Source of the DNA: Verrucomicrobiales bacterium
Lineage (GTDB): Bacteria; Verrucomicrobiota; Verrucomicrobiia; Verrucomicrobiales; DEV007
Length of the DNA: 64,000 nucleotides
Reading direction: 5' to 3'
Assembly: GCA_024638765.1 (NCBI GenBank)
Contig: JAHEJT010000004.1
Coordinates: forward strand, 174 to 64,173
Positions within the stretch are counted from its first letter, which is position 1. The number at the start of each line of letters is the position of its first letter. Made by a program: the position numbers and the translations under genes. This document shows, in pieces, positions 9,141 through 60,899 of the stretch. The notes below the pieces were generated by a model. That model did no database searches. It saw nothing but the letters and a program-made list of their open reading frames with translations, and was not told the origin of the DNA.

Positions 9141-9278
9141 AAGTGAAGTTTGGACATTGCACATTGAACTTACAATGTCGAAGATCCAACGACGGTGTCT
9201 CTTCCAAAACGGTAAACGGATGAAACGGGGTCCAGCTTTCATTTTATCTATCTGCGCCATCTGCGCCATCTGCGGTTC
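9079..9278. repeat. 29-nt inverted repeat (arms 9079..9107 and 9250..9278, 1 mismatch); each arm is about 3 copies of the 9-mer ATCTGCGCC and encodes ICAICAICGS in a sulfatase signal peptide
   Basis: The reverse complement of 9079..9107 is ATCTGTGCCATCTGCGCCATCTGCGGTTC. 9250..9278 is ATCTGCGCCATCTGCGCCATCTGCGGTTC. Confidence 0.95.
9153..9179. promoter_or_regulatory. Heptamer motif GACATTG CACATTG -N6- CAATGTC in the 79-bp divergent sulfatase intergenic region; candidate operator
   Basis: Read directly: a tandem pair plus an inverted copy, centred between start codons 9140 (-) and 9220 (+). The function is inferred only. Confidence 0.35.
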
Positions 9279-10563
9279 AAAATCCGAGGCGGCACGACGG
9301 CCCAACATCCTCTTCCTGATCGCCGACGACCTCGGTTGGGCGGACGTGGGGTATCACGGCTCGGAAATCGATACCCCGCGCATCGACTCCCTTGCACGCG
9401 CCGGCGTGATCCTGGAACAGCATTATGTCACCCCGATGTGCAGCTCCACGAGAGCTTGCCTGCTTAGCGGACGTTATTCCACCCGCTTCGGACTCGACAG
9501 CGCCACCAACTCCCAGGTCTTTCCCTTCGGCACCGTGACCCTGGCTTCGGCGCTGCAATCAATGGGGTACCATACCGGTCTCACCGGCAAGTGGCATCTC
9601 GGCTCACAGCCGGTGACCGGCCCGCGCAAATTCGGGTTCACGCGCTCGCACGGAGCCTTCGCGGGCGGTGTCGATCAATACACGCACCTCTACAAAAAGG
9701 GCCCATACCAGAAGACCTGGCATCGCAACGACGTCCATATCGACGAAGAAGGCCATGCCACCGATCTTTTCGCGCGCGAAGCGATACGGTGGATCGAAGA
9801 CTCCGCCGAAGCCTCCGACAGGCGACCCTGGTATATCCAGGTCGCCTTTACCGCGGTCCATATCCCCATCCAGGAACCGGAGCAGTGGGTCGAGCCTTAC
9901 AAAGACCGCATCGAAAACGAATCACGGCGCCGCTTTGCAGCCTGCGCCGCCCACATGGATCACGCCATTGGGGAAATCGTCGACGCGCTCGCGCGGACGG
10001 GGCAGGAGGAGGACACCCTCATTATCTTCACTTCGGATAACGGCGGCTCCGGTCCCTGGAAACCCTCAGGACTCTACCCCGGCACTTACGCACCCTGCCC
10101 GGTCCTCGGCAACAATCTCCCGCTGCGCGGCGGTAAGGGCACCGTTTACGAAGGCGGGATTCGCGTGCCGGCGTTCGCCCACTGGCCCGGGATCCTGCAG
10201 CCGGGTAAATTGCACCATCCCATCCACGTGGTCGACTGGATGCCGACGCTCCTGAATTTGGCGGGCTGGGAATCGGAAGAAGATCTGCAATGGGACGGAC
10301 GGGATGTCTGGCCGCTGCTCACGGGCGCGGAAAAATTTCCCGAATCGCGTGTGCTCTACTTCAAGCGCGGCCGGAATTATGCATTACGCAAGGGGCGATG
10401 GAAGCTGGTGCAATCGGGGTCGGAGCGGGTGGAGCTCTTCAACCTCGATAAAGATCCTAATGAAGAGGACGACCTTTCCCGGCAAGACGCTTACCTGACC
10501 CGCGTCGATCAGCTCACCGCCTTGCTCGAGGAGCAGCGGCGGCTTGATGGAGGGGAGAAGTGA
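9220..10563 (+). CDS. Arylsulfatase (Cys-type, variant CSSTR motif)
   Basis: ORF 9028..10563 trimmed to ATG 9220 (signal peptide MKRGPAFILSICAICAICGSKSEA). ILFLIADDLGW, MCSSTRACLLSGR, GKWHLG, FTSDNGG. Confidence 0.9.
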   Translation: MKRGPAFILSICAICAICGSKSEAARRPNILFLIADDLGWADVGYHGSEIDTPRIDSLARAGVILEQHYVTPMCSSTRACLLSGRYSTRFGLDSATNSQVFPFGTVTLASALQSMGYHTGLTGKWHLGSQPVTGPRKFGFTRSHGAFAGGVDQYTHLYKKGPYQKTWHRNDVHIDEEGHATDLFAREAIRWIEDSAEASDRRPWYIQVAFTAVHIPIQEPEQWVEPYKDRIENESRRRFAACAAHMDHAIGEIVDALARTGQEEDTLIIFTSDNGGSGPWKPSGLYPGTYAPCPVLGNNLPLRGGKGTVYEGGIRVPAFAHWPGILQPGKLHHPIHVVDWMPTLLNLAGWESEEDLQWDGRDVWPLLTGAEKFPESRVLYFKRGRNYALRKGRWKLVQSGSERVELFNLDKDPNEEDDLSRQDAYLTRVDQLTALLEEQRRLDGGEK

Positions 10564-39095: not shown

Positions 39096-39200
39096 ATAGA
39101 AATTACTGAAACAATTAGAAAATATGAATATTATAGTAAATATTTAAGCTGCTGGACATCTCTGTGTCCTTGATTCTGAATGGATTGGGCAGAATTTCCC

Positions 39201-39222
39201 AAAAAAACCACCCACCCGGTGG
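39201..39222 (-). terminator. Weak candidate terminator after the cupredoxin giant
   Basis: The minus strand reads CCACC-GGGTG-GGTGG followed by TTTTTTT. The stem is only 5 bp. Confidence 0.35.
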
Positions 39223-39254
39223 CACGGATCCCCCTCGGCAGGCCCTCGAGCCCC

Positions 39255-42113
39255 TTAATCCGCCTTTTCGACTCCGACGCGCATCACCCCGCGCATCACC
39301 CTCCAATGCCCTGGAAACGTGCACAGGTAAGGGTAATCCCCCGGCTCCTCGGGCGCGAAAAATTGCAACCGATGCCGCTTGCGGAGGGCGAGCTGCGGCG
39401 TCCAATGCAGAACCTTCTCAGTATCAGGCACATAATTCCGCTCCAGCCCCTCCGGCGTGGCCGCCATGGCATCCGCCGCCAGCCCGACCTCTTCTTCCGC
39501 ACCCGGCATCACGATCACCAGGTTGTGATACAGGTTGTCCGGATTGACAAACTCGAGCTCCACCGCGCTGCCGGCGGGCACCGCGAAACTCGCCGGCGAG
39601 AACTTTAAATCGGGAGTGGCCGTAATCCTCACCAGGGTGACCTGCTTTTCGCGGTGTTCCAACGGCCACATCTGCCGGGGGACTCTCTGCATTGATTTCA
39701 GGGCAGCGAAGCTCAGTGCCAGATCGCCGGATCCACCTTCGGCATCCACCACCCCGCCCAGTAACTCGACCGCGGCTTCTTCGCGGCCGGCGATCCCCGT
39801 GATGGCCTCCGCCGCAGCCACCCTGATGGCCTTGGGAGCTTTCTCAAGCCGCTCAGCGATAAAAGGAAAAAGATCGCCGGGAGTATCCTCCCGCCCCAAC
39901 AAAGACACTGCCAACAATAAGTCGACCACCGCCAGCGGTCCTTTCGCCGCAGCCAATTCCGCGGCCCGCAACCCGGAACCCTGCACCTTGATCATCAATC
40001 CATATCCATATCGGGACAGATTGCGATTTTTTGATCTGGTCCAACGTTCAGCCGTCTCTTCCGCGACAGTCCTGATCTCATCGGGGCGCGGCCACTTGAT
40101 GAGTAATTTCGACATGCTTGCCAAATAACGGCCCTCCGTATCCTCCTCGACAAGAGACGCCATCAACGCAAAGGAAGCCGAGTCCTCCCCGCCACTCAGA
40201 TGCGCCAGCGCCTCGATGTAAGACCCTGTATCCAGGCCTACTCTCCTCAATATTTCGTAAGCCACCGGTTCCGTCAGCTCTTTCGCCAAAAGTTGCGCGT
40301 CCTCCAGCGTCGGTAAGAGAAACACCTCGACCTCGGACGGCGCGCGACCGGTTACTCCCGCGAGATATCCCAGTGTTTCCTGCGCCGCCAGTTGGAAACC
40401 GGTGTCCATATCGCGATCGAGCGCAAGTGCCGCCACCTCGATGGCAGACTCCGGTTCTACATGGTATCCGCATGCCAGGAGGGCCTCGAGCCGGACTGCT
40501 TGGTGTTCATCCGTGATGGCACGCTCCAGCAACTTTAGAGCGCGATCCGGTGCCATAGACCCCTGCCAGAACCGCAGGACTCGCCCGGCCGCGGTCCGCA
40601 CATGATAATCCTCGCCTCCCAAAAGTCTTTCCAGCAACGCGAAATCGTAATGATTTTGCCCCTGGTAAAGCCATAGCGCTTCCACCTGATGATGCCAGGA
40701 CGCCGGATCCGAGGTCTCCAATCCATGCACCCACTTTTCGATTTCCGGGACAACCGCTCCAGCGTCCCTTTCCTGCAGTTCCCGCCTCGCAAAATACCGG
40801 GTCCGGTAATTGGGATCCTTCAAGAGTTCCAATAAGACATCGACAGAGGCTCCGCGGATCTCCGGTTGCCATACCAGAGGCCGGGACTTATGCGTGATAC
40901 GCCACACTCGGCCATGCGTCTGGATACGGCGGGCATCCCTGAAATTGTAGGTCGTGTGCCCCACGATCGGGTTGTAATAGTCGAGCACGTAAAGAGCCCC
41001 ATCGGGCCCGAGTTGCAGGCCCGTGGGCCGAAACGTGATGTCCGTGGTCGTGAGGAGCTCCTCTTCTCCTCGAGGTTGGGTCGTCCCATAACCCGCGCCT
41101 TCCTCATGGAGTTGATACCACCGGATCCCATGCCAGCCCTTCATTTGATTGGTCACATACCATCCACGCACTTCTTCCGGAAAATGCTCGCTCAATAACA
41201 ACTCGTTCCCGCAGGAGGGCCGGCGTCCCGCCGGCGTGAACGAGTACTGATTCCTGACCGTCGTGAAGCTCTCGTACTTGCCGGGCTTGGGATAATGAAA
41301 GTTGCTCGTCATGTAAGGGAGGTAATAGTTCAAAGCCGGCGACGCGTCCGCGAGCAAAGGTTGCCCCCAATGATCGAAGACAATTCCCCAGGGATTCGAC
41401 CACCCGAAGCTCCCATGGACTTCCAGCTTGTGAGTTCGCGGATCAAAGCGGAACACCGTGGCTTCAAAGGCGCGCACCGGACCGTGGGGGGTTTCAATCT
41501 GAGTGTTCAAGAACAGCCCCTGCCCGAAATACAGTCTCCCGTCGGGCCCCCATTGAAAGCCCGAGGCAACGTGGTGATTGTCCTCAGTCCCCAGCCCGTG
41601 TAATTCGATCCGCTCCTCGTCCGCGACTCCGTCGCCATCGGTATCGGTCAAGCGGAGCAGATTGGGTTCACTAACCACGAACACCGTCCTTCCACCATCC
41701 GCCAGGGCGAATCCCATGGGCAGATAAAGCTTGTCGTAAAACACCGTGCACTTGTCCGCAGACCCGTCCCGGTCCTCGTCTTCGAGAATCAGAATCGAAT
41801 CCCGCGGTTCTACCCCGGGAAGCGCATGGGGATGGCTCGTCACACAGGAAACCCAGAGTCGGCCCCGGGAATCAAATGTCATCGCCGCGGGGCTTTGAAT
41901 CGGAAAATCTTTTTCCGAAGCAAACAAGTTGACCTGGTAATCCTCCGCGACCGTGAAGGCTTCCAAGGCCTCCTCCGGCGACAGCATTTCCGGCAGCGCG
42001 CCCCCAATGAGATCCGTCGCCACCGCGTCGCCACCGGAAATCGAAAGCAGGATTGCCGCCCCCATCGCCGGCCATTTACCGCGCGGAATCCAGTTTTTGA
42101 CTCCGATCCTCAT
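39255..42113 (-). CDS. PVC 'membrane-bound dehydrogenase' beta-propeller + HEAT repeats + C-terminal azurin-like cupredoxin domain
   Basis: The propeller begins near PIQSPAAMTFDSRGRLWVS. The C-terminus has type-1 copper ligands in azurin spacing: YHNLVI (His) and CTFPGHWRVM (Cys-X4-His-X3-Met). Confidence 0.85.
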   Translation of the reverse strand: MRIGVKNWIPRGKWPAMGAAILLSISGGDAVATDLIGGALPEMLSPEEALEAFTVAEDYQVNLFASEKDFPIQSPAAMTFDSRGRLWVSCVTSHPHALPGVEPRDSILILEDEDRDGSADKCTVFYDKLYLPMGFALADGGRTVFVVSEPNLLRLTDTDGDGVADEERIELHGLGTEDNHHVASGFQWGPDGRLYFGQGLFLNTQIETPHGPVRAFEATVFRFDPRTHKLEVHGSFGWSNPWGIVFDHWGQPLLADASPALNYYLPYMTSNFHYPKPGKYESFTTVRNQYSFTPAGRRPSCGNELLLSEHFPEEVRGWYVTNQMKGWHGIRWYQLHEEGAGYGTTQPRGEEELLTTTDITFRPTGLQLGPDGALYVLDYYNPIVGHTTYNFRDARRIQTHGRVWRITHKSRPLVWQPEIRGASVDVLLELLKDPNYRTRYFARRELQERDAGAVVPEIEKWVHGLETSDPASWHHQVEALWLYQGQNHYDFALLERLLGGEDYHVRTAAGRVLRFWQGSMAPDRALKLLERAITDEHQAVRLEALLACGYHVEPESAIEVAALALDRDMDTGFQLAAQETLGYLAGVTGRAPSEVEVFLLPTLEDAQLLAKELTEPVAYEILRRVGLDTGSYIEALAHLSGGEDSASFALMASLVEEDTEGRYLASMSKLLIKWPRPDEIRTVAEETAERWTRSKNRNLSRYGYGLMIKVQGSGLRAAELAAAKGPLAVVDLLLAVSLLGREDTPGDLFPFIAERLEKAPKAIRVAAAEAITGIAGREEAAVELLGGVVDAEGGSGDLALSFAALKSMQRVPRQMWPLEHREKQVTLVRITATPDLKFSPASFAVPAGSAVELEFVNPDNLYHNLVIVMPGAEEEVGLAADAMAATPEGLERNYVPDTEKVLHWTPQLALRKRHRLQFFAPEEPGDYPYLCTFPGHWRVMRGVMRVGVEKAD

Positions 42114-42119
42114 TTTTCG

Positions 42120-43166
42120 TTATGGCTGGGCGCGCAACTCTTTCGCAGCTTGGCTTATCTTCAAATCCAGTTCCCTGATCATGCTATCAAGCTGCATCAT
42201 TTCTGGAGGATAGGAGAGCACTCCGAAGGGTTCCTTACGGCGGCCGAAAATGTATTCGGCGTTTACCGGGCGCCAGCGAAGAAAGAACTGCTTGTTCTTC
42301 GCGACCACCAGTTCTCGCAATCTCGTGAGACTCCGCTCGGAAATTGTCAGGCTCATTTCAAGTTGATCGGCCATCATCCGGCTAACCATGGCATACCCTT
42401 TCCCGTTCAAATGGATTCCATTGATCGTCAGAGACTCTATCCCACCTCGCGCACGCATGAGGTTGAGCGTAGGCCGGAACAGATCCACGAATTGCGTGCT
42501 CTTTGCGCGCGCCACTTCTTCCATCGCCTCGGTGTAAAGAGCGAGGTCGGCATTGTGCGCTGCGGGATCCGGCCAGAAGCCACCCAGATTCTCGTGCGCA
42601 ATCGGTGAAACCAGAACCAACCGGGGTGGGGATTCACCGTTGAATCTGCCCGCGCTGAGCCGATCCACGAAATCTGCCAGATCATCCGCAAATTCCCGGA
42701 CCCCCTCGGCGCCCTTGAAAGATTCATTCATTCCGAAACACAGAAAAATCAGATCCGCTTTCGCCTCGCTCAAGTGTGTCTCCAACTCCCCGAAATTGAG
42801 GGGACGTGGCATCAGCGTCAGTTCATCGGCGCTCCATCCCATATTCCGCACCACCGGCGCCTGATCGACGAAGTGGTAGTGCAGCAGACTTTCAAAAAAA
42901 CCGTGGCCCTGCATCCGCTCGGCAAAGGTGTTCCCCAGAAAGACAATGTGGTCGCCGTCGCGCACCTCAAATGCCCGGGCGGACATTCCCCACGCGACAA
43001 AACAGCTCGCCACGCAACACCTCAGCGCCAGGCAGGCCACGCCCGCCAACTCGGAAGTCAATCTCACAGCGCCAAGATAGAAACGATTCCCAGGTAAGGC
43101 GACCGGATTTTCGCGAAGATCAAGCCCGCAGTTTCTCGTTGCCTCAGGCCCTTGCCGCCGGTTCAA
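42120..43166 (-). CDS. SGNH/GDSL-fold hydrolase-like protein with variant catalytic blocks
   Basis: Block I IVFLGNTF (GNT in place of GDS). Block II NMGWSAD. Block III FGMNESF. Block V NGIHLN (N in place of D). The start is uncertain: in-frame GTG 43067 gives a cleaner signal peptide, MRLTSELAGVACLAL... Confidence 0.55.
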   Translation of the reverse strand: MNRRQGPEATRNCGLDLRENPVALPGNRFYLGAVRLTSELAGVACLALRCCVASCFVAWGMSARAFEVRDGDHIVFLGNTFAERMQGHGFFESLLHYHFVDQAPVVRNMGWSADELTLMPRPLNFGELETHLSEAKADLIFLCFGMNESFKGAEGVREFADDLADFVDRLSAGRFNGESPPRLVLVSPIAHENLGGFWPDPAAHNADLALYTEAMEEVARAKSTQFVDLFRPTLNLMRARGGIESLTINGIHLNGKGYAMVSRMMADQLEMSLTISERSLTRLRELVVAKNKQFFLRWRPVNAEYIFGRRKEPFGVLSYPPEMMQLDSMIRELDLKISQAAKELRAQP

Positions 43167-47578: not shown

Positions 47579-47789
47579 TGTGGTGTCCCGGAAATAATGT
47601 GACATGGGGCGCGAGTAATTTTTTTCAAATTCGAGGCGCGAGGAGGTCGCGGAGCCCGCTCCGCGACCAACGAGCGACGAAGAGGTTGGGAAAAAGGGCC
47701 GCGCATTCTTAATCAATGCGAGCGAAGCGAGGTGATTCTAAAATCGTTCAATACTTTTTATGTTGCAGGATTTCCGGGACACCCCGCTA
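47576..47789. repeat. 20-nt inverted repeat (18/20 match) whose two arms each begin with the TAG stop codon of a convergent gene
   Basis: 47576..47595 is TAGTGTGGTGTCCCGGAAAT. The reverse complement of 47770..47789 is TAGCGGGGTGTCCCGGAAAT. A 10-bp-stem hairpin GGTCGCGGAG-CCCG-CTCCGCGACC lies inside at 47645..47668. Confidence 0.8.
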
Positions 47790-49283
47790 AGGCAACCGGT
47801 TCAGGGTGTAATACCCCTGCGGATGCAGCACGGGATCGCCCGCTTTCGACCGCACCCCCAGGGCGTGCAACTCGTGCACGTACCCTTCCCGCAGATCCTT
47901 GCACACCAGTTCCACCGACATCCCGTCCTTCGACACCCGCGCTTCTTCGATCTTCACATCCTCCGTTTCCACCTCTTCACTGCCGTAGAGTTGGTGATAA
48001 ATGTAGGTGTAACTCGTCATCTCGTAAGAAGTGAGCTTCTCTGCCGCTGCCGCATCCACCGGCTTCGTGAACGTCAAACGAAAGCCGGTGGACATCGCCT
48101 CCATCTTCTCGATTTCGAAAGGCATCTCCCCTGTCCACACCATGCGCTCAAGACCAAAGGATCGCGTCCCCAGAGAATTCCATCCCCGATTGGATTCCCC
48201 CACCATCATTGAGCCGTCCTCGAGGAAAGCCATTTGCAGGACCGCACTTTGGAATCCTCTCCTGAAATGAAAACATGCGCCCTGGTATTCTCCTTTCACC
48301 TTCTCCAGGAACACACGGCTCACAAAAGCCTGCGTGAATTCTCCGACAAAAAACTGATGTGCAAAGGGGCCGAACTTGCCTCCGGAGTCATCCAATACGA
48401 TCCCGGTGGTACTCTGACCGACCTTATTGTAAGGAAACCACACCGCAGGCAGGACGTACCCCGGAATCGTCCGGGAAGCGTCGACCACCGTGAGTCCCTT
48501 CGGAACCGCTCCCGGATGCTCCAGTGGGGATTCAGGCCGCTTCGCGTCCGGCAGGCTTTCGGCGTGTCCGTGAAAGACGCCCTTCCGCAGGTGTACCAGA
48601 GGATTGGTGCCCCAGTAATTCCCCTGCTGATCGGTCGCAAATACGTCGCCCAGGTGATTGACCCCGATACCGAACGGGGATCGCAACCCGCAACTTATCG
48701 GCTCCAGTTTACCACCGGGTTGCATCATCATGGACCAGCCCCGCCAGGGAAATTCCGTGACCCGGTGCCCGGGAATCTCGGTGGGATCGCCGATCGTGAT
48801 GTTCAGCGTGACCCAGAGATTCCCGTCGTGATCGAAGACCGGGCCATACGCGTATTCGTGATAATTTCCGGATACCCCCCACCCCTTTGCCGCCGTCAGG
48901 TATTCGTCCGCAATCCCGTCACCGTCGCCATCGCGCAGCCGAGTGACCTCGCTTCGCTGTGTCGTGTAGAGGGCCCCCTCATGCCAGGTGAGCCCCAGGG
49001 GTTCGTGCAAACCCGATGCAAAGCGCGTGAACTTGGTATTCTCCCTGGTCGGAGGATCCGCTGCCGGATCGTCCAGGATCCAGATCTCTCCTTTCCGGAT
49101 TGCGATCGCCAATTTTCCGTCCGGCAAAGGAGCGAGACCGCTGGCTTCCAGCTTGAGCCCGGCCGGGAGAGGAATCGTAACGATGCGATAGTAATCTGCT
49201 TCCGTGGGTTCGGCCCGTCCCGGGAGCACGCAGGCGAACAGTAGAAGCAATGTTCCGAAAACTCTGTGCCAACGCGTTACCAT
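47787..49283 (-). CDS. Secreted beta-propeller protein of the PVC dehydrogenase-like family (no haem motif of its own)
   Basis: Signal peptide MVTRWHRVFGTLLLLFACVLPGRA. LPDGKLAIAIRKGEIWILDD. The start overlaps the upstream cytochrome gene's stop by 7 nt (ATGGTAA). Confidence 0.7.
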   Translation of the reverse strand: MVTRWHRVFGTLLLLFACVLPGRAEPTEADYYRIVTIPLPAGLKLEASGLAPLPDGKLAIAIRKGEIWILDDPAADPPTRENTKFTRFASGLHEPLGLTWHEGALYTTQRSEVTRLRDGDGDGIADEYLTAAKGWGVSGNYHEYAYGPVFDHDGNLWVTLNITIGDPTEIPGHRVTEFPWRGWSMMMQPGGKLEPISCGLRSPFGIGVNHLGDVFATDQQGNYWGTNPLVHLRKGVFHGHAESLPDAKRPESPLEHPGAVPKGLTVVDASRTIPGYVLPAVWFPYNKVGQSTTGIVLDDSGGKFGPFAHQFFVGEFTQAFVSRVFLEKVKGEYQGACFHFRRGFQSAVLQMAFLEDGSMMVGESNRGWNSLGTRSFGLERMVWTGEMPFEIEKMEAMSTGFRLTFTKPVDAAAAEKLTSYEMTSYTYIYHQLYGSEEVETEDVKIEEARVSKDGMSVELVCKDLREGYVHELHALGVRSKAGDPVLHPQGYYTLNRLP

Positions 49284-51580
49284 TTCACCTCCTCCTCGAT
49301 CACCGCTTCGCCCTTCTTGAACATCACCACCCGCGGCACTGCCTTTTTCCCAAGCCCTCGGAAGTAGATGTCACTCCCCTCTCCTCTCAGCCGAACCGTG
49401 CGCCGCAATTTCTCTCCGTCCGCGCTCGGCGAAAGGGTGTCTTCGACCTGCAGGCCGTCGAATGAATAGAGAAACGTCGGCACGCCGCCGGCATCCAGCC
49501 GGAATCCTCCGAACTCATAACCCGCTTCCGCTCCCGTGCCTTCCGGCCACGCGGTTTCCGCAGTCTCGAGGCGCGCCAGCGGCATCCACAACGGAAATTC
49601 ATTCACCTCGTCGCCCAGCGGCCTGGCCGGAGTCGCTTTGCGTTCGTCCCAGGTGCTCATGGCATCCAGAAACCGGCCGCGCCACGCGATGGCCCAGCGG
49701 ATTTCAAGGGAATCGAAGGCGACATGAACCCCTGCCGGGTAACCGGTGGTGACCGCCTGCATTCCCGCGCCTTCGAGGAAGGTGCGAAAGACGATCGGTT
49801 CCTGGTCCGGCACCAGTTCAAAATCTTCGGTCTTCAAGAGTCCTTCCGGGAGACGGCGCTGATCGATTTCTTTCAAGTAAGTCCAGATTTGTTCCACTTC
49901 CTCTTCGGCTTTTTTCCGACCCAGGAACAGCGGCGGCATCAGGGTCCCCGGCAGGACGCCCTGGGGATCGAGCAGCAATTCTTTGAAGAACCCGGGCTGG
50001 AGCCGGTTCACGGTGTGCGTCAGGTTGATCGCCGGCGCCCCCAAGGCCTTGGCATCTTTGAGCCCGTGACAAGTGATGCATCCCAATCCGTCGGCCCCGA
50101 GCAAATCCCGGCCGTAATGCCCCCGCTGATGACGTTGCAGTCCGCTGACGTCCATCTCCATGGCAGGCTCGCGCACGTCCGCCGCCGCAAAGCCTGCCGT
50201 CAGCGCACTGACGTTGGCTTCACCGAACGCGGGCATCCGCACCGTCATGTGGGGACGCACCTCACCCCCCTCTCCGAACAGTATCTTCTCCATCCATGAC
50301 CGGGTCAGCTTGCGGCCCACGTGGGTCAGGGAAGGCGGGATATTTCCGAAGTCACCGAGTGAGATCGCAGCGGAGTCAGTCACCCCGAAATAGGCGGCCC
50401 GGGCCAGCTCCGCCCCGCCTTTCCCGTCGCGCGCATGGCAGGCGTAACAGTTGAGTGCGGTCATCACCCGGTCGACGCGCTCCCCGGGTGCGAGCGTCAT
50501 GCGTCCCGCCGGCTTTTTCAGCTTCCTCAGCGCCAGGGTAATGGCTTCCCGCTGGATATAATCGAGGTAATAAAAAGGAATACCCCCGGCCAGAGGTCTC
50601 TCCGAAAGACAACTCCTCTCCGCCGCGGGATCGAGGGCCTCCAGATGCTTGGTCGTCGCCGGGACCGCCCCGGCGCCACTCTTATCAGTCCCCGCGTCGT
50701 GACACGCCACGCAATTCTTTCTCGCGAACACTTTTTCTCCCTCTGCGGCCAGCGCCGGATCGAGCACAAATTCCGGCTCCGTTTCTTCCTCGGCGGGCCA
50801 GCCGGCCTGCAGGTATTTCGCCACGTCAGCGGCTTCCTGGGCGTTCAACTTCATGTCCGGCATCCTGCCCGCGGGACGCACTGCCAGGGGATCCTGCAAA
50901 AAAGCCGCCAGGGCCGCCTCGTCATAGAGATAGGCCATCGCAAGGGGAACCGAAGGAAAACCGGGTAATTCCGGTTCCGTGCCGGGTGGAAAACTTTTGG
51001 GTACGTAACCTTGTTCCACATCGTGACAGGCCACGCATCCCACCTCGTGATAAATCTCTTTGCCCCGCTCGACGTCGCCTGCGGGTAACGGCTCGCGTTT
51101 CAATCCCTTCCGCGAAGCCAGAAAATGGGTGAGCGCTTCGATCGCATCAAGATCCCGGTCCGGTCCGCCGAAGAGACTCGGCATGGTCGTACCCCGCTTC
51201 ACGAAGCGCGGGTTGCGGGCCATCAAGCGAAGATCCGCCGGCTCCAGCCGCTCTCCCACCGAGTGCAGCAGCGGTCCGCTTTTCCCGGGCAATCGCGCGC
51301 GCAAAGATTTATCCTTGGGACGGTGACAAGCGACGCAATTGAGTTCGTTGAGCAGCAGTTCACCGCCCTGCGCCAGGTAATCTTCGCTGTCTTCCTGGAT
51401 GTAGAAATTTTCGAAGCCAGCGACGACAGGGTATTCGATCGATTCAAGGGCATGCGTCGGATGCGCGTCGACAGCGCCCGGTAAAACGAATGCGATCCCC
51501 GTCGCGCAGACAAGAATCCTCGCGACCGGCAAGAGGAAAATCCGCGCCGGATACCGCGTGCTCCGTCCCATCCGCGCCAT
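49277..51580 (-). CDS. Multihaem c-type cytochrome (five CXXCH motifs)
   Basis: CVACHRP, CVACHDV, CVACHDA, CYACHAR, CITCHGL. N-terminal signal/anchor. Confidence 0.85.
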   Translation of the reverse strand: MARMGRSTRYPARIFLLPVARILVCATGIAFVLPGAVDAHPTHALESIEYPVVAGFENFYIQEDSEDYLAQGGELLLNELNCVACHRPKDKSLRARLPGKSGPLLHSVGERLEPADLRLMARNPRFVKRGTTMPSLFGGPDRDLDAIEALTHFLASRKGLKREPLPAGDVERGKEIYHEVGCVACHDVEQGYVPKSFPPGTEPELPGFPSVPLAMAYLYDEAALAAFLQDPLAVRPAGRMPDMKLNAQEAADVAKYLQAGWPAEEETEPEFVLDPALAAEGEKVFARKNCVACHDAGTDKSGAGAVPATTKHLEALDPAAERSCLSERPLAGGIPFYYLDYIQREAITLALRKLKKPAGRMTLAPGERVDRVMTALNCYACHARDGKGGAELARAAYFGVTDSAAISLGDFGNIPPSLTHVGRKLTRSWMEKILFGEGGEVRPHMTVRMPAFGEANVSALTAGFAAADVREPAMEMDVSGLQRHQRGHYGRDLLGADGLGCITCHGLKDAKALGAPAINLTHTVNRLQPGFFKELLLDPQGVLPGTLMPPLFLGRKKAEEEVEQIWTYLKEIDQRRLPEGLLKTEDFELVPDQEPIVFRTFLEGAGMQAVTTGYPAGVHVAFDSLEIRWAIAWRGRFLDAMSTWDERKATPARPLGDEVNEFPLWMPLARLETAETAWPEGTGAEAGYEFGGFRLDAGGVPTFLYSFDGLQVEDTLSPSADGEKLRRTVRLRGEGSDIYFRGLGKKAVPRVVMFKKGEAVIEEEVKW

Positions 51581-52189: not shown

Positions 52190-53107
52190 TCACGCCTGTT
52201 TCACCAAATTCTCCAGGTAATTCCGCGACCGGTTAATCTCCGCGGTGATCGCTTCGGCGCTATCAAGGATCGGAATCCCTCGCGGCACCGGGTGCATGAA
52301 TATCTCGGTAAACCCGCGGTAATCGATTTTCTTGAGAGCCTCTACGAGGGGATTAAAGTCGAGATCGCCCCGCCCCGGCATTTGCAGAAGCTCCTGCGCC
52401 TTGGGCAGCTGTTCTTTCGAACCCATTCCGTGCTGCTGCGCGTAAAAGAAAGCCGTCTTGTCACCGAGCGTTGCAATCAGTTTCCCCTGCATCTCCCCGT
52501 CCTGCGGCAGATGATGCGGTGCAAAGGCAATGCCCAGGTGTTGCGAAGTCGCGTGCTCCGCGAACCACTTCATGGAATCGGGACTGCTGACCAGGCTGTT
52601 CGCGTGGTTCTCGACGGCGATCGTGACGCCGTGCGCCTCCGCCACCGCCACGTGCGGCTGCATTTTTTTGCAAAACTCGGCGACCGCCTTCTTCAATTCC
52701 GCGCCCTCGAGACCCTTGGGACCCCGGGAACCACACACCATGACCGGGCATCCGAACCGCTTGGCCACCGGCATCTCTTCCTCCAATCCAAACGGCCCGA
52801 GATTGTAATGCGTGAGCACACCCAACTTGACATCGTGCTCCTTCAATAGGGCTTCAAACGCATCCAGCCCCATCTCCGTAATCTGCTCTCGCTGGTTCCC
52901 ATGCTTCAACGGCCAGATGTCGATGTGCCCCGCCCCGACCTTGCGCACTTCCGGCAGGATCTCCGCCAGCGGCATTGTCCCGAACATGGCCGACGAGAGA
53001 ATGTAGCGCAGGGAGAAAGTGTCGGGCACTCCCCGGAGCTGCGATGGACCCCCCAACGTGGAGGCGCTTCCCAACGCGAGAGTTTGCAGAAAATGACGGC
53101 GATTCAT
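52190..53107 (-). CDS. TAT-exported xylose-isomerase-like TIM-barrel protein
   Basis: MNRRHFLQTLALGSASTLGG. AVENH. The RBS-like sequence AGGAGGAG lies upstream. Confidence 0.75.
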   Translation of the reverse strand: MNRRHFLQTLALGSASTLGGPSQLRGVPDTFSLRYILSSAMFGTMPLAEILPEVRKVGAGHIDIWPLKHGNQREQITEMGLDAFEALLKEHDVKLGVLTHYNLGPFGLEEEMPVAKRFGCPVMVCGSRGPKGLEGAELKKAVAEFCKKMQPHVAVAEAHGVTIAVENHANSLVSSPDSMKWFAEHATSQHLGIAFAPHHLPQDGEMQGKLIATLGDKTAFFYAQQHGMGSKEQLPKAQELLQMPGRGDLDFNPLVEALKKIDYRGFTEIFMHPVPRGIPILDSAEAITAEINRSRNYLENLVKQA

Positions 53108-53237: not shown

Positions 53238-55031
53238 TCACTTCCCTCCCGTGGAGTCCACTTTCCGCAACCAGATCCCATTGAGCCGCATCAACTCATC
53301 CCCCGGCACTTCCACGGCTTCCGCCACGAGCAAAACCCGGCCCTCGGCCAGTTGCAACGTCCCCACCTTCTGCCTTCGAAACACTTCCGGCGTCGCCGTC
53401 GCCCGCACGCGGTGCTCGACGAAATTTCCGTCCGCGGAAATTCGCAGTAATCCCCCCGCATCACTGAATCGGCAGCCGTATCGAATGAGGATCTCGTATT
53501 CGCCTCCGCCCCGGACATCCAGGTTCCATTCGGCTCTCTCTCCCGGCGATTTCCAACCCTCGATCGTGTCCCAGTCATACCCCTGGAAATTGTATTCAAT
53601 CGCGTCCCCGTGCCAGGTCGCCCAGCTCGCTTGAATCTCGACCGGGTTCTCCTCCGGATGACCCACCGGCACGGCAATGGGGCGGTATTCCACCCCCTGC
53701 GTCACTTCCTTAAACCACCGAAGGAACTCTTCGCGCAATCTTTGCACGGTCTCTGGATTCTTTTTTGCGATGTTCGTTTCTTCTGAAGAATCTTTTTCAA
53801 GATCGAAGAGCATCCACTTTGCGGGATCCGGCGTCCCGCCGGTCCCCACCTGGCCCAGCAATTTGTAGCGTTGATCGCTGATCGACCAGCGGTTGTCCGG
53901 GTTCGGAACATACCGGTCCCAGGTGTGATACACATAATCGTGGTGCTTTTTCCCTTTCCCCGCCACCAGCAACGAAAGGAGACTCACGCCGTCGAACTCC
54001 CGGTCCGTGGGCAAATCGACGCCTGCAAGTTCGCAGAGAGTCGGCATGATATCGACGTGCCAAGCCTGGCCGGAGACCACTCCCCCCGCAGGAAACTTGC
54101 CGGGCCAACGCACGAACAGCGGACTCCGCACGCCGCCTTCGTAGACTTGGGCTTTGTTCCCGCGGATGCCTGCCTTGAAAAATTTGCTGACCCCTCCGTT
54201 GTCGCTCATGAACAACACCACGGTGTCTTCTTGCAGGTCGAGCTCCTCGAGCCGGGCCAGGATCCGGCCGATGTTCACGTCGACCCGGTCGACCAGCGAA
54301 TAAATGCGGGCCTCGCGCAGAGGCAGTCCGCGCCCCAGGTATTTCTCGAGGATCTTGTCCCCTTCCGGCTGCCCGTAATGCGAGGTATCGAGAATCCACG
54401 GCGAGTGCGGCGCGTTAAAAGCCAGCACGCAGAAAAAGGGATCCTTGCCGCTCTCCGCGATGAAATCCCCGGCGGCATCTGTGAACAAATCGCTGACATA
54501 ACCCCGGGCCTCCACCGGCCTGCCATTCTCGACGATCTGATCGGGAAACTCGTATCTCTCCATGTGTCCGTGGTAATGCCCGAGGAACCGGTCAAATCCC
54601 CGTTGGTCGGGTTGATACCCGTAATACTTCCCGAGGTGCCACTTGCCGAATAATCCCGTCCGGTATCCGGCTTTTTTCAGAAGCTGGGCCACCGTGATCT
54701 CGCCGATCCCAAGGGTATCCCCGCCGAAACGCGTGTTGTAGAGCCCGGTCCGCAGGTAATAGCGTCCGGTCATCAATCCCGCCCGCGTCGGGGCGCACAC
54801 CGGTGCCGCGTAAAATCGCGAAAAGCGCACGCCCTCCCTTGCCAATCGATCCATGTGCGGCGTGTCGATGTGGGGATTTCCGGAGACACCCGTGTCCCAC
54901 ACCCCTTGGTCATCCGTGATGATGAGGAGAACGTTCGGCTTGGAACCGCACAGATCCTCGGCGCGAGCGATCGACGCGGAAGCAATGCCTAGAGCTGAGA
55001 AAAGAATCCCGACGCTTAGACGGAAATACAT
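53238..55031 (-). CDS. Arylsulfatase (Cys-type) with a C-terminal beta-sandwich-like extension
   Basis: ORF 53238..55157 trimmed to ATG 55031 (MYFRLSVGILFSALGIASASIARA). LLIITDDQG, CAPTRAGLMTGRY, GKWHLG, MSDNGG. Confidence 0.9.
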   Translation of the reverse strand: MYFRLSVGILFSALGIASASIARAEDLCGSKPNVLLIITDDQGVWDTGVSGNPHIDTPHMDRLAREGVRFSRFYAAPVCAPTRAGLMTGRYYLRTGLYNTRFGGDTLGIGEITVAQLLKKAGYRTGLFGKWHLGKYYGYQPDQRGFDRFLGHYHGHMERYEFPDQIVENGRPVEARGYVSDLFTDAAGDFIAESGKDPFFCVLAFNAPHSPWILDTSHYGQPEGDKILEKYLGRGLPLREARIYSLVDRVDVNIGRILARLEELDLQEDTVVLFMSDNGGVSKFFKAGIRGNKAQVYEGGVRSPLFVRWPGKFPAGGVVSGQAWHVDIMPTLCELAGVDLPTDREFDGVSLLSLLVAGKGKKHHDYVYHTWDRYVPNPDNRWSISDQRYKLLGQVGTGGTPDPAKWMLFDLEKDSSEETNIAKKNPETVQRLREEFLRWFKEVTQGVEYRPIAVPVGHPEENPVEIQASWATWHGDAIEYNFQGYDWDTIEGWKSPGERAEWNLDVRGGGEYEILIRYGCRFSDAGGLLRISADGNFVEHRVRATATPEVFRRQKVGTLQLAEGRVLLVAEAVEVPGDELMRLNGIWLRKVDSTGGK

Positions 55032-55044
55032 CACGCCTGTCCTG

Positions 55045-55132
55045 ATTCGCGCTAATTCGTGCTCATTCGTGTTCATTCGTGTCAGAAAATCTTTAAACAC
55101 GAATTTTACGAATTCCACGAATGGCCACGAAT
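55045..55132. repeat. Inverted arrays of the heptamer ATTCGYG / CACGAAT (4 + 4 copies, 9-10-bp phasing) in the 5' leader of the sulfatase gene
   Basis: ATTCGCG, ATTCGTG, ATTCGTG, ATTCGTG start at 55045, 55055, 55065 and 55075. CACGAAT, TACGAAT, CACGAAT, CACGAAT start at 55098, 55107, 55116 and 55126. Confidence 0.9.
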
Positions 55133-55170
55133 AAAAAGAGGCTCCCCGCGCCAGCAAATCCCAATAACGA

Positions 55171-57547: not shown

Positions 57548-59824
57548 TTACTTACTCTTGCCCATCTGCCGTATCCACTCGGTGACCAATTCGAGCCCCT
57601 TCTCGTCCACCCGGTCGCTTCCGATCAAGGGCATCTTCCCTGGCCCGCGCGTCGCCATGCGCCGCCAGATCTCCGAGCGCTCCGGTTGTCCCGGCGCGAT
57701 GATCCGCGCATCCTCCACTCCCGGCAGCCCCACCACCGGCCTGGCGCCGACGGCTCCCGTCTCTTCCAGCGTCAACCAGCGCAGCAACTGAAATTCCGCC
57801 CGCCCGCCCAGGCCCGTCTCCCGGTGACAATGCGCGCAGTTGACATGCAGATACGTCCGCACCCGCTCGTCCAGCGAGGCGCTCTCATCGCACGGAGCCA
57901 CCGAGCGCGGCCATTCCCCACGCACCTTAGGCAGCTTCTTCCCCTTGAAAAAACCCAGGCTCGAAAACGTCTCCAACTGGTTTCCCTTGCTCCCTCCGAT
58001 CGCATGGTAGTCGAAATCCCGGTTCAGTTGCCCCATATTCATTCCCAGCACAAAAAAAGAACGGTGCGTGTGACAGGCTCCGCACTCGGCCCGGCTCATG
58101 AATCGCCATTCCCGGTCCCCGATCTTCCGCGTCTCCCCGGCCTCCGGGACCAGCACCGCATCCTCCTGATTCTCGCGCCACCGGTAAGTGTAAAAATGCC
58201 ATTCCTCCGCCTCATTGAAACTCACCTGCGTTTCCACCCGCCTCTTTCCCCCTCGCGCCTTTGCATCCGGAAGATAATACGTTTGCATAAAGGCGCTCCC
58301 GCCCAGGAAACGCCATCGATCGAGCCCCGCCGCGCGCGTGCCCGCCGCCTCGATATCGAAATCCGGCATTCCCGGCGGTTTTTTCTGCACCTGGATGGAG
58401 GCATCGGCCGGCATCGCAAAAAATCGCTCCCGCTCCATCCCGTCCCACCAGGCCGGCGCGTTGAGATCGTAGGGTATCACTCCCGATTCGATTCGATGCG
58501 CCGCGGTCGACGCAAAAAGACCGGTCTCACTCAAGAGACGCGGCACCGGGCGATAAACCTGTTGCTCAGATGGCCGCGCCAGCCGCAGGACCGGCCCGTC
58601 CAGCGGTAGCACGTAAACTTCGCCCTCGCCGTCCCCGGCAAAGGAAACCACCTGCAGCCCCGCATCGGCCAATCTTCGCGGCTCCCCCGGCGTATCGCCA
58701 TCCACGGGGACCGACCACACCTTCTTCGTGACGTAACAACCGTAAAGATAATGTCCGCGCAATTCCGGGAACTTTTCTCCCCGATAAAAAAAGCCCCCGA
58801 TCACCGAACGCATTTCCGTGTGGGGATGCTCGACCGCCGGAGGCGTCAGTCCCCGCACCGGTCCGCCCAGGCCCGTGCGCGTGCGAAACGGATGACTGCC
58901 TTCAAACGCGCTCCACCCACCGTTATCCCCGCGCCGGAGCCGGCGCACCATTTCCCAGTGCTCGTCCCCGTTGTCGCCCAACCAAATCTCTTCGTGGTCC
59001 GGACGAAAGGTCATTCTCCACGGATTACGCAATCCATACGCCCATACTTCCGGCCGCACACCGGGCATGCCGACGAACGGATTGTCATCGGGAATCCTAT
59101 ACGGCGTCGCTTTCCCCGCACGATCCACGTCGATGCGCAGAATCGAACCCAGCACATTATCGACCGTTTGTCCCACGTTCCCCGGGTCACCCGGCGATTC
59201 GCCATCCCCGGTCGACAGATAAAGAAAGCCGTCGGGACCGAACTTGAGATCGCCCCCGGCGTGGCCCCGGCCTCCCCATTCCAGGAGCACCTCCTCGGTT
59301 TCACGATCGGCGCGCGGTGGATCTCCGACGGACACTTGGAAACGCGAGAGCCGGTTAATGCGTTCTCCGTTATCAAAACGGGAATTGTAACTCACAAATA
59401 CCGTGGGGTCACGCGGGTAATCCCGGTGGAACGCCACCGCGATGATGCGAATAGGGAGCTTGTTAGGCGCTCTTGATCCCGTCGCTTCGCCTCCACCTAA
59501 GCCCAAAAACAGCACTCGCTCCGCCGCGTCCGGTGCGTTGACAAAGGTCCAGAGTTTTCCCGCGAGCTCCGCCAACAGGAATCGCACATTATCACCGGCT
59601 CCCGGCACGACCGCCAGGTAGATCGGGGCATCCATCTCCAGATCCGGAAACGCCTCCACGGTCACGAACGGAAGCGGCGCGTCCCCGGTGCCTTCGAGTT
59701 TTGATGAATCCCAACGCGGAAATTCCGTCAAACCGGAAGCGCCATGCACGCCGGAAATCGTCCCCAGCAATGCCAGCAAATTCGAAAGGAAACAAAGGAC
59801 CGGCCGCGGCCCGCGACAATTCAT
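57548..59824 (-). CDS. Soluble glucose/sorbosone-dehydrogenase-like beta-propeller fused to a C-terminal haem-binding region (two CXXCH)
   Basis: ORF 57548..59902 trimmed to ATG 59824 (MNCRGPRPVLCFLSNLLALLGTISGVHG). GLRNPWRM propeller motif. CGACHTH and CAHCHRE. Confidence 0.75.
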   Translation of the reverse strand: MNCRGPRPVLCFLSNLLALLGTISGVHGASGLTEFPRWDSSKLEGTGDAPLPFVTVEAFPDLEMDAPIYLAVVPGAGDNVRFLLAELAGKLWTFVNAPDAAERVLFLGLGGGEATGSRAPNKLPIRIIAVAFHRDYPRDPTVFVSYNSRFDNGERINRLSRFQVSVGDPPRADRETEEVLLEWGGRGHAGGDLKFGPDGFLYLSTGDGESPGDPGNVGQTVDNVLGSILRIDVDRAGKATPYRIPDDNPFVGMPGVRPEVWAYGLRNPWRMTFRPDHEEIWLGDNGDEHWEMVRRLRRGDNGGWSAFEGSHPFRTRTGLGGPVRGLTPPAVEHPHTEMRSVIGGFFYRGEKFPELRGHYLYGCYVTKKVWSVPVDGDTPGEPRRLADAGLQVVSFAGDGEGEVYVLPLDGPVLRLARPSEQQVYRPVPRLLSETGLFASTAAHRIESGVIPYDLNAPAWWDGMERERFFAMPADASIQVQKKPPGMPDFDIEAAGTRAAGLDRWRFLGGSAFMQTYYLPDAKARGGKRRVETQVSFNEAEEWHFYTYRWRENQEDAVLVPEAGETRKIGDREWRFMSRAECGACHTHRSFFVLGMNMGQLNRDFDYHAIGGSKGNQLETFSSLGFFKGKKLPKVRGEWPRSVAPCDESASLDERVRTYLHVNCAHCHRETGLGGRAEFQLLRWLTLEETGAVGARPVVGLPGVEDARIIAPGQPERSEIWRRMATRGPGKMPLIGSDRVDEKGLELVTEWIRQMGKSK

Positions 59825-59990
59825 CCACCCATTAAACGAGTCCGCGCCCCACGGCACAAGCGGAATGCAGCGCGTCTCGCCATGTCCGGAAAATGGTCTC
59901 AATCCACAATTCTAATGCTTGGCCTCGAAGCGCTCCCTGTTGTATACCGGAGATTCTTCTTCCCCTGAACACTCCTAAAGAAATCGAATC

Positions 59991-60899
59991 ATGACCGCTC
60001 ACAATTTCTCCCGCTTCCTCGGAACCGCCCTCCTGGCCGCCTTCTCTCTCATTCTCCTCAACCCGCCCGCCATCGCCGCGGAGAAATCCAAGAAAGCAGG
60101 CAAAGCTCCGCCGGCAAATCCGGCACCCAAAAAACATCCCACCGGTTACACCGACACGCCGTTCCTGCCCGGCGACAAATGGCGTGTCCACGACGACACC
60201 CGGCCCCGGCCCAAGGTGGTCACCCCCGGCCCGGGATACGGCGCCCCTCCCGCGGATGCCATCGTCCTCTTCGGCGGCACCGACCTCTCCCAGTGGCGGA
60301 AGTCCAACGAAGCCGCCAACGACTGGATCATCCGGGACGGGTACATGGAAGTCCCGCCATCAAAGAAAGATCCCAACAACCCGAAGAAAACCATCAAGGG
60401 CGATCTCTTCACCAAGAAAAAATTCGGCGACATCCAGCTGCACATCGAGTGGGCCGCGCCGGCGGAGGTCGTCGGCGATTCGCAGGGCCGCGGCAACAGT
60501 GGCGTCTTCTTTTGCGACGGCGTCTACGAACTGCAGGTCCTCGATTCCTACAACAACAAGTCCTACGCAGACGGCCAGGCTTCGGCCCTCTATGGCTGGA
60601 AGCCTCCCCTGGTGAACGCATCCCGCAAGCCCGGCGAGTGGCAGACCTACGATATTGTCTGGGAAGCGCCACGCTTCAAAAAAGACGGCAAGCTGGTCAA
60701 GAAAGCGCACATCACCGTCCTGCATAACGGCATCGTCACGCACAATCGCCAGGAATACATCGGCGCCACGGGGCACAAGAAAGTCGGCGAATACAAAGCC
60801 CATCCCCCAAGAGGCAGCCTCAAGCTCCAGGACCACAACAATCCCATGCGATTCCGCAATATCTGGGTGCGTGAACTCGATTTGAAGGCCAACGAGTGA
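59991..60899 (+). CDS. DUF1080 (PF06439, 3-keto-disaccharide hydrolase-like) jelly-roll protein, secreted
   Basis: Signal peptide, then GDIQLHIEWA, NSGVFF, YELQVLD, GEWQTYDI, LKLQDHNNPMRFRNIWVREL. Confidence 0.8.
   Translation: MTAHNFSRFLGTALLAAFSLILLNPPAIAAEKSKKAGKAPPANPAPKKHPTGYTDTPFLPGDKWRVHDDTRPRPKVVTPGPGYGAPPADAIVLFGGTDLSQWRKSNEAANDWIIRDGYMEVPPSKKDPNNPKKTIKGDLFTKKKFGDIQLHIEWAAPAEVVGDSQGRGNSGVFFCDGVYELQVLDSYNNKSYADGQASALYGWKPPLVNASRKPGEWQTYDIVWEAPRFKKDGKLVKKAHITVLHNGIVTHNRQEYIGATGHKKVGEYKAHPPRGSLKLQDHNNPMRFRNIWVRELDLKANE

Follow-up and report, generated by a model that had tools for sequence, protein, structure and literature searches.

Proteins that combine a TIGR02604 beta-propeller, a HEAT solenoid and a C-terminal TIGR02603 haem domain are annotated as 'PVC-type heme-binding CxxCH protein' or 'putative membrane-bound dehydrogenase'. 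One of them, the haem-tailed Lac161_ORF7 (AGW45552; TIGR02604, HEAT and cytochrome c) from a Chthoniobacter-like clone, was reported to hydrolyse lactose with a Km of 1.8 mM (Cheng et al. 2017; PMC5342196), and Naumoff, Dedysh and colleagues have included TIGR02604 proteins among putative glycoside hydrolases of the beta-propeller kind (PMC7397252, PMC5352709). Among copper proteins, auracyanins A and B of Chloroflexus and Roseiflexus (1qhq/1ov8, 2aan, 6kol) have the Greek-key cupredoxin fold in common with azurin and are free carriers or are tethered by a lipid or transmembrane anchor. Here we analysed a gene whose product, hereafter P0001, joins the propeller family of the former to a copper domain of the latter kind, together with the SGNH-fold gene directly upstream of it. 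Both genes lie in a 64,000-nucleotide stretch (positions 174 to 64,173 of contig JAHEJT010000004.1, assembly GCA_024638765.1, Verrucomicrobiales bacterium), which we call the window. P0001 resembles the haem-tailed proteins in its propeller family, its HEAT region, its export and the C-terminal position of its electron-transfer module. It differs in that a type-1 copper domain replaces the TIGR02603 haem domain, so that the NCBI family name is a misnomer for it, and in sitting in a subfamily tied to an SGNH-like module.

A preliminary description of the locus, made from the sequence alone, had proposed a 952-aa protein with a propeller, HEAT repeats and an azurin-like tail, and profile searches bore this layout out. 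Residues 45–409 matched DUF7133 in Pfam (E = 9e-69; PF23500, 233 bits against a cut-off of 27, coverage 1–384 of 385), and the same N-terminal domain matched TIGR02604 in NCBIfam (206.2 bits against a cut-off of 122.2), whose product name there is 'PVC-type heme-binding CxxCH protein'. The HEAT_2 profile of Pfam matched residues 492–581 (E = 6e-11). An AlphaFold2 (AF2) model built from 36 homologues reached a mean predicted local distance difference test score (pLDDT) of 88.6 and a predicted template modelling score (pTM) of 0.80; pLDDT fell below 50 over the N-terminal region, which by its residue pattern reads as an export signal. Only five cysteines are present, CxxCH occurs nowhere in the 952 residues, and NCBIfam gave no TIGR02603 match. 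By its propeller and HEAT region P0001 is a member of TIGR02604/DUF7133, standing outside the haem-tailed architecture from which the NCBI family takes its name. The propeller also carries two DxDxDGxxD loops whose aspartates were invariant across all 11 aligned DUF7133 paralogues of the same genome and were conserved beyond any putative catalytic residue; from the motif they look like structural calcium sites. We hold these statements of identity, namely an exported protein of three domains and what each domain is, with high confidence.

Residues 834–946 of P0001 matched PF00127 (Copper-bind, plastocyanin/azurin family) at 25.1 bits against a cut-off of 21.2. The last 129 residues matched auracyanin B (1ov8, E = 3e-15) as well as auracyanin A and numerous azurins. 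In these matches the four ligand residues (His, Cys, His, Met) line up, and the tail shares the CTFPGH loop and 30–35% identity with the auracyanins. Both motifs quoted in the preliminary description were located, HN as YHN at 39522..39530 and CTFPGHWRVM at 39294..39323, and H863, N864, C931, H936 and M940 were invariant in 36 homologues down to 37% identity. In the AF2 model the C-terminal domain folds as a cupredoxin and so survives the structural check that the preliminary description had set for itself: Foldseek matched it to Roseiflexus auracyanin 6kol (template modelling (TM) score 0.86, root-mean-square deviation 1.7 Å, 30% identity), to 1qhq (TM score 0.76) and to azurins (TM score about 0.81), and the azurin–amine dehydrogenase complex 2h3x was among the matches. 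The His–Met spacing is also azurin-like (C-x4-H-x3-M). The azurin equivalog TIGR02695 scored 26.4 bits, below its cut-off of 105.1, and the tail is azurin-like rather than an azurin. P0001 therefore ends in what sequence and model predict to be a copper-binding type-1 domain with an intact ligand set. The auracyanins are free or tethered carriers, whereas the copper domain of P0001 is the C-terminal part of a 952-aa enzyme.

Seven proteins of the genome carry a cupredoxin of this type: three DUF7133 proteins, a 1336-aa protein with ThuA and DUF6797, a DUF6797 protein that has it at the N-terminus, a membrane-anchored protein and a secreted stand-alone protein. The type was also present in 34 of 41 related genomes and is evidently a general-purpose periplasmic electron-transfer module of the lineage. 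The membrane-anchored copy (L047, C275:47394-48248) has a transmembrane helix and an Ala/Pro-rich linker, an auracyanin-like tether, and the stand-alone copy (L048, C234:11216-11704) is a secreted protein of 163 aa; these two could be candidate electron acceptors for the fused copper domains. The 1336-aa protein (L045, C102:13858-17865) consists of ThuA, DUF6797, an unassigned region and the cupredoxin. About 320 nt 3′ of its gene lies a radical S-adenosylmethionine (SAM) gene (C102:18186-19037), which is the best PqqE match in the genome at a sub-threshold 71 bits.

How the copper and haem tails are distributed was examined with a homologue search of 5.8 billion proteins, which gave 2276 homologues among the scored candidates; architectures were taken from the best 120 of these 2276. 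Nearly all of the 120 consisted of DUF7133, HEAT and PF00127. Homologues carried source labels such as 'glucose/arabinose dehydrogenase/azurin', 'plastocyanin/azurin family copper-binding protein' and 'PVC-type heme-binding CxxCH protein', and the copper-tailed ones came from Verrucomicrobiota, Phycisphaerae, Acidobacteriota (Luteitalea) and Bacteroidota (Dyadobacter). The genome of P0001 itself holds about 22 DUF7133 open reading frames (ORFs), three of which end in CTFPGHxxxM (contigs C205, C254 and C177) and about 15 in CxxCH. In some relatives both tails occur, and the cupredoxin then always lies between the scaffold and the cytochrome c.

A maximum-likelihood tree was built from 130 propeller domains. 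It placed every copper-bearing protein in one clade (Shimodaira–Hasegawa-like approximate likelihood ratio test support 100), where the tandem forms and three haem-only paralogues (C80, C142 and C122) also fell; the genome's remaining haem paralogues lay outside. The tail changed state at least six times on this tree. Among the 50 members of the P0001 orthologue clade the copper motif was kept in all except P0054, a shorter sequence (797 aa) that lacks any tail motif, and none was haem-tailed. The copper tail is a fixed trait of the orthologue group, and this speaks against its being a local backup for a haem paralogue. We also considered recent domain shuffling at the P0001 locus and rejected it on the same counts. 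The preliminary description was right that the copper domain sits where paralogues carry a c-type haem domain; its view of the swap as a feature of one neighbourhood did not survive, as the exchange is family-wide and labelled in databases, and the closest haem-tailed paralogues (C80, C122 and C142, 36–40% identity over the scaffold) are on other contigs. Tail exchange is an old, recurrent trait of the family that is not peculiar to the neighbourhood of P0001, and the copper-for-haem variant, being common and already annotated, is largely an ordinary case.

The swap partner originally put forward was a giant paralogue in the same window, said to have the same layout as P0001. DUF7133, HEAT and the haem motif (GACMTCH) were indeed found in it, and an N-terminal sulfatase at residues 86–423 had been missed. 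BLASTP aligned the two proteins at 28% identity over 264 aa of the propeller (E = 5e-18), and their HEAT regions were not alignable. Met57, the start used in the preliminary description, is plausible for the giant, lying just ahead of a hydrophobic, signal-like stretch. We rejected the giant as the relevant swap partner, since it is outside the P0001 subfamily and was left out of the tree by the coverage filter. The joining of its sulfatase to a dehydrogenase-like propeller suggests, from domain content, a sulfated-glycan substrate for the giant. Elsewhere in the window, the gene at 47787..49283 (minus strand) encodes 498 aa that match DUF7133 only in part (E = 9.5e-11) and lack a redox tail. 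Its first 7 nt are shared with the end of the gene upstream of it, which codes for a 767-aa multi-haem cytochrome c (49277..51580, minus strand), and the pair looks like a split propeller-plus-carrier design. At 194..2569 (plus strand), an M1-family peptidase is fused to four HEAT_2 repeats, and several unrelated catalytic domains in the genome bear HEAT solenoids.

The SGNH-like gene had been described as lying 6 nt upstream of P0001 in the same operon, and the junction reads TAA-cgaaaa-ATG accordingly. Given this 6-nt gap and the terminator-like hairpin with seven T after the P0001 stop codon, the two genes form a bicistronic operon. The SGNH-like ORF stays open to a TTG at 43166; its likely start is the GTG at 43067, which would yield a signal-peptide-like N-terminus. 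The product matched PF13472 (E = 6e-13) and was modelled by AF2 with a pLDDT of 88 and a pTM of 0.88. Its nearest folds in Foldseek were the carbohydrate acetylesterases Est24 and Axe2 and sialate O-acetylesterases (TM scores 0.6–0.72, about 15% identity). Like these SGNH/GDSL esterases, it keeps the fold, the block II Gly, the block III Asn and the block V His. The esterases have GDS and DxxH, whereas the protein in the window is of a GN(T/S) and NG(I/V)H type that has an additional helical C-terminal extension of about 80 aa and is always paired with or fused to a DUF7133 propeller.

The variant blocks noted earlier, GNT and NGIH, were read in the window as FLGNTFA (block I) and TINGIHL (block V), with GMNE as block III. 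Across the aligned DUF7133-linked homologues, block V was NG(I/V)H in all and block I was GN(T/S) in nearly all (one has GGT); the block II Gly and block V His were kept in nearly all, and the block III Asn in most (three have GMAD or GMGE). Because GN(T/S) and NG(I/V)H are conserved across phyla, the variant blocks are family traits and not decay. The best-conserved part of this SGNH-like family is the C-terminal helical extension (about the last 60 residues, at 42120..42300 in the window), whose motif KNxxFFxRWRPVNxEYxxGRRxxPFGxxxxPxE exceeds the SGNH blocks in conservation (K230, R237, R239, N242, E244, Y245, G248, R249, R250, P253, F254 and G255). This extension may mediate contact with the propeller or contribute to a new active site.

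Gene order and fusions both connect the two proteins. The SGNH gene was directly upstream of the propeller gene in orthologous loci L028–L030 and in four of four true orthologues of related genomes (G011:C13, G017:C100, G002:C96 and G014:C14). Fusions in the same genome as P0001 comprise SGNH, DUF7133, HEAT and copper domain (C254), SGNH, DUF7133 and copper domain (C177) and a haem-tailed form with SGNH, DUF7133, HEAT and cytochrome c (C122); at C80 the SGNH domain is encoded by an adjacent gene. SGNH–propeller fusions were likewise found in most relatives and in Bacteroidota proteins (43–46% identity), and when the first 32 fused matches to SGNH in relatives were inspected, 26 had the cupredoxin in the same open frame. 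Among 1.84 billion representatives, the SGNH-like subfamily formed 419 clusters at 50% identity (E <= 1e-30); in the best 150 clusters, about a third of the proteins exceed 1000 aa and are therefore fusions. Adjacent in every orthologue checked, the SGNH-like gene is an obligate partner of P0001 and a regular one of the copper/haem-tailed subfamily, and the window holds a split form of a common SGNH–propeller fusion. The coordinates of the locus are given in the table below.

Table. Positions in the window of the operon, the domains of P0001 and the giant paralogue.
Feature	Position	Strand	Basis or remark
P0001 gene (DUF7133 propeller, HEAT, cupredoxin)	39255..42113	-	952-aa ORF
N-terminal export signal (putative), residues ~1-32	42018..42113	-	basic n-region, hydrophobic AMGAAILLSISGG, then AVA followed by T
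Six-bladed beta-propeller DUF7133/TIGR02604, residues 45-409	40887..41981	-	Pfam, NCBIfam
DxDxDGxxD loop, residues 112-120	41754..41780	-	looks like a calcium site
DxDxDGxxD loop, residues 157-165	41619..41645	-	looks like a calcium site
HEAT-like alpha-solenoid, residues ~424-808	39690..40844	-	HEAT_2; AF2 all-helical, pLDDT mostly >90
Type-1 copper domain (predicted), auracyanin/azurin-type, residues ~822-947	39273..39650	-	PF00127, auracyanin B match, Foldseek
Cu ligand codon H863	39525..39527	-	
Cu ligand codon C931	39321..39323	-	
Cu ligand codon H936	39306..39308	-	
Cu ligand codon M940	39294..39296	-	
Spacer cgaaaa, 6 nt	42114..42119	-	between SGNH stop TAA and P0001 ATG
SGNH-fold partner gene	42120..43067	-	PF13472, AF2 model
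Terminator-like hairpin, then seven T	39200..39223	-	32 nt past P0001 stop codon
Giant paralogue (sulfatase, DUF7133, HEAT, TIGR02603 CxxCH haem domain)	4566..9308	-	1580 aa from ATG 9308; 1524 aa from Met57 at 9140

Direct sequence searches of the propeller against the PDB returned nothing significant (best E = 0.64). The DUF7133 family profile gave NHL/teneurin blade-repeat matches and a weak match to 2g8s (E = 5e-4). Foldseek matched the modelled propeller to the pyrroloquinoline quinone (PQQ) domain of Coprinopsis pyranose dehydrogenase (6jt5), Trichoderma AA12 (6h7t), HHIP and the PQQ sugar dehydrogenase 3a9g, with TM scores of 0.58–0.65. When a profile of 11 DUF7133 propellers from the genome was aligned by hhalign with the genome's own PF07995 (glucose/sorbosone dehydrogenase, GSDH) profile, the match reached 97.5% probability (E = 8e-12, 276 columns). 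One DUF7133 paralogue matches PF07995 directly; for P0001 itself, Pfam gave no PF07995 match. From these profiles and models, the P0001 propeller is a remote homologue of PQQ-type soluble glucose/sorbosone dehydrogenases. In the hhalign alignment H181 falls on the His of the GSDH motif HNxGxLxFGPDG, and both H180 and H181 are invariant in the P0001 subfamily. We take the motif His of soluble glucose dehydrogenase to be the general base, and the Arg and Asn of its RNPW motif to be PQQ contacts.

With the PQQ sugar dehydrogenases (PF07995; E. coli YliI/Asd, 2g8s; 3a9g), P0001 has in common the six-bladed fold, the profile homology and the position of the motif His; it differs in its extra HEAT solenoid, its two DxDxDG loops, its SNPW motif and the lack of PQQ synthesis genes among those found in its genome. 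A propeller joined covalently to an electron-transfer domain is also the design of fungal AA12 pyranose dehydrogenase (6jt5) with its built-in cytochrome domain; the tail there holds haem b, and in P0001 copper.

The explanation that best fits this locus, and which we consider probable, is that the two-gene operon is a split form of a common multi-domain periplasmic enzyme for carbohydrate oxidation via a copper tail. The mechanism in particular, periplasmic carbohydrate oxidation wired to respiration, we put forward as a serious but tentative possibility. The propeller would oxidise a carbohydrate-type substrate in the periplasm, and the tethered cupredoxin would accept the electrons and hand them towards the respiratory chain, possibly with free or membrane-bound cupredoxins of the same type as relays; the SGNH-like module would bind or pre-process the substrate, which may be acylated. 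By analogy, the mode of action of P0001 might resemble that of AA12 pyranose dehydrogenase or of the amine dehydrogenase–azurin pair, both of which couple a dehydrogenase to a carrier. The carbohydrate link comes from the many homologues with galactose-binding F5/8-type C modules, from the resemblance of the SGNH fold to carbohydrate acetylesterases and from a window rich in sulfatase, DUF1080, GSDH and TIM-barrel genes.

Several points weigh against this mechanism. The direction of electron flow, the substrate and the cofactor are all things that we infer. H181 is not conserved in all DUF7133 subfamilies, and where GSDH has RNPW, P0001 keeps N240 and has Ser239 in place of the Arg. The SGNH-like protein lacks the canonical catalytic Ser (GDS) and Asp-x-x-His. 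In the genome, which is 93% complete, a search run without a positive control gave no pqqC match, and no true pqqE was found, only generic radical-SAM matches, none of which scored above 71 bits where the cut-off is 381. The family's sole biochemical datum, the lactose hydrolysis by Lac161_ORF7, is not a dehydrogenase activity. Literature searches by family, by product name and by the pairing of azurin with a dehydrogenase brought up no study of the copper-tailed form. The missing pqqC and pqqE weaken the PQQ hypothesis; they are not fatal to it, because the genome has bona fide GSDH genes, and PQQ may be acquired externally.

That same lactose hydrolysis, the listing of TIGR02604 proteins as putative propeller glycoside hydrolases and the galactose-binding modules of homologues would all suit a different function, in which the propeller is a beta-galactosidase-like glycoside hydrolase of an unclassified family and the copper domain is regulatory, structural or a passenger. 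We regard this as unlikely: nearly every family member has an electron-transfer module (haem c, copper or both), the invariant copper ligands are hard to square with a pure hydrolase, the kinship of fold and profile is to dehydrogenases and not to known glycoside hydrolase propellers, and the hydrolysis is a single in-vitro report without a mechanism. The preliminary description had suggested instead that copper- and haem-tailed paralogues are isofunctional backups selected by copper or iron availability, as plastocyanin and cytochrome c6 are. Both tails do occur in one genome, and the repeated tail changes on the propeller tree would agree with such a role, but we find it very improbable, because the 50-member P0001 clade keeps the copper motif bar its 797-aa sequence. 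There is no near-identical copper/haem pair in the genome: the nearest haem paralogues and the giant are so distant from P0001 in sequence that isofunctional pairs are unlikely. Proteins with copper and haem in tandem exist, and beside the operon we saw neither a metal-responsive regulator nor a metal-responsive motif. Different redox partners for the copper- and haem-tailed paralogues, the other suggestion made there, are plausible. Marginally less probable again than the backup role is a reversed flow, in which the copper domain would supply the propeller or its SGNH partner with electrons to drive reductive or oxygen-activating chemistry on a glycan. No data fix the electron direction, and the fungal AA12 and AA8 enzymes, the former with a propeller fold in common with P0001, feed electrons to other enzymes; against this, neither an oxygenase-type metal site nor such a partner gene turned up in the operon, and blue-copper and c-type tails on periplasmic dehydrogenases are classically electron acceptors, the complex 2h3x being among the fold matches.

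An extension of the oxidative mechanism, speculative and in our judgement improbable, though less so than the backup role or reversed flow, would make the SGNH-like module, the sugar-dehydrogenase-like propeller, the HEAT solenoid and the blue-copper domain one periplasmic 'respiratory glycan-cleaving' machine. If this were true, the propeller would oxidise a glycoside with scavenged PQQ or another cofactor and so promote cleavage of glycosidic or ester bonds; this would account for the 'beta-galactosidase' activity that has been reported for a relative. A non-hydrolase step would then fall to the Thr/Asn-variant SGNH domain, electrons would pass via the tethered cupredoxin to the respiratory chain, and polysaccharide breakdown would itself yield energy. 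A literature search on oxidative glycoside cleavage found nothing usable.

Upstream of the operon lies a divergent sulfotransferase gene, and downstream a hybrid histidine kinase gene, separated from the terminator-like hairpin by an AT-rich stretch. DUF7133 genes are over-represented on the contig, which has 4 in 68.7 kb where 0.3 would be expected. The contig is also dense in glycan-processing genes, at 57548..59902 (minus strand), 59991..60899 (plus), 52190..53107 (minus), 53238..55157 (minus) and 9028..10563 (plus); their periplasmic products are a 784-aa GSDH-family protein, a DUF1080 '3-keto-disaccharide hydrolase', a xylose-isomerase-like TIM barrel and two further sulfatases. The host genome (5.4 Mb in 309 contigs) comes from a sediment metagenome, and the sequencing runs that hold the locus were all of sediment-metagenome DNA, with none of RNA.

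As the copper tail is common and already annotated, the P0001 locus adds no new principle. It offers a compact, split, two-gene version of the enzyme with all parts intact, which could be expressed for study, and the variant SGNH-fold module emerges as a regular component of the copper/haem-tailed subfamily. DUF7133/TIGR02604 ranks with the families that have expanded most in Verrucomicrobiota, Planctomycetota and many Bacteroidota, and this one genome has some 22 copies. If the redox tail couples glycan processing to respiration, models of carbon turnover by these abundant sediment and soil bacteria would change.

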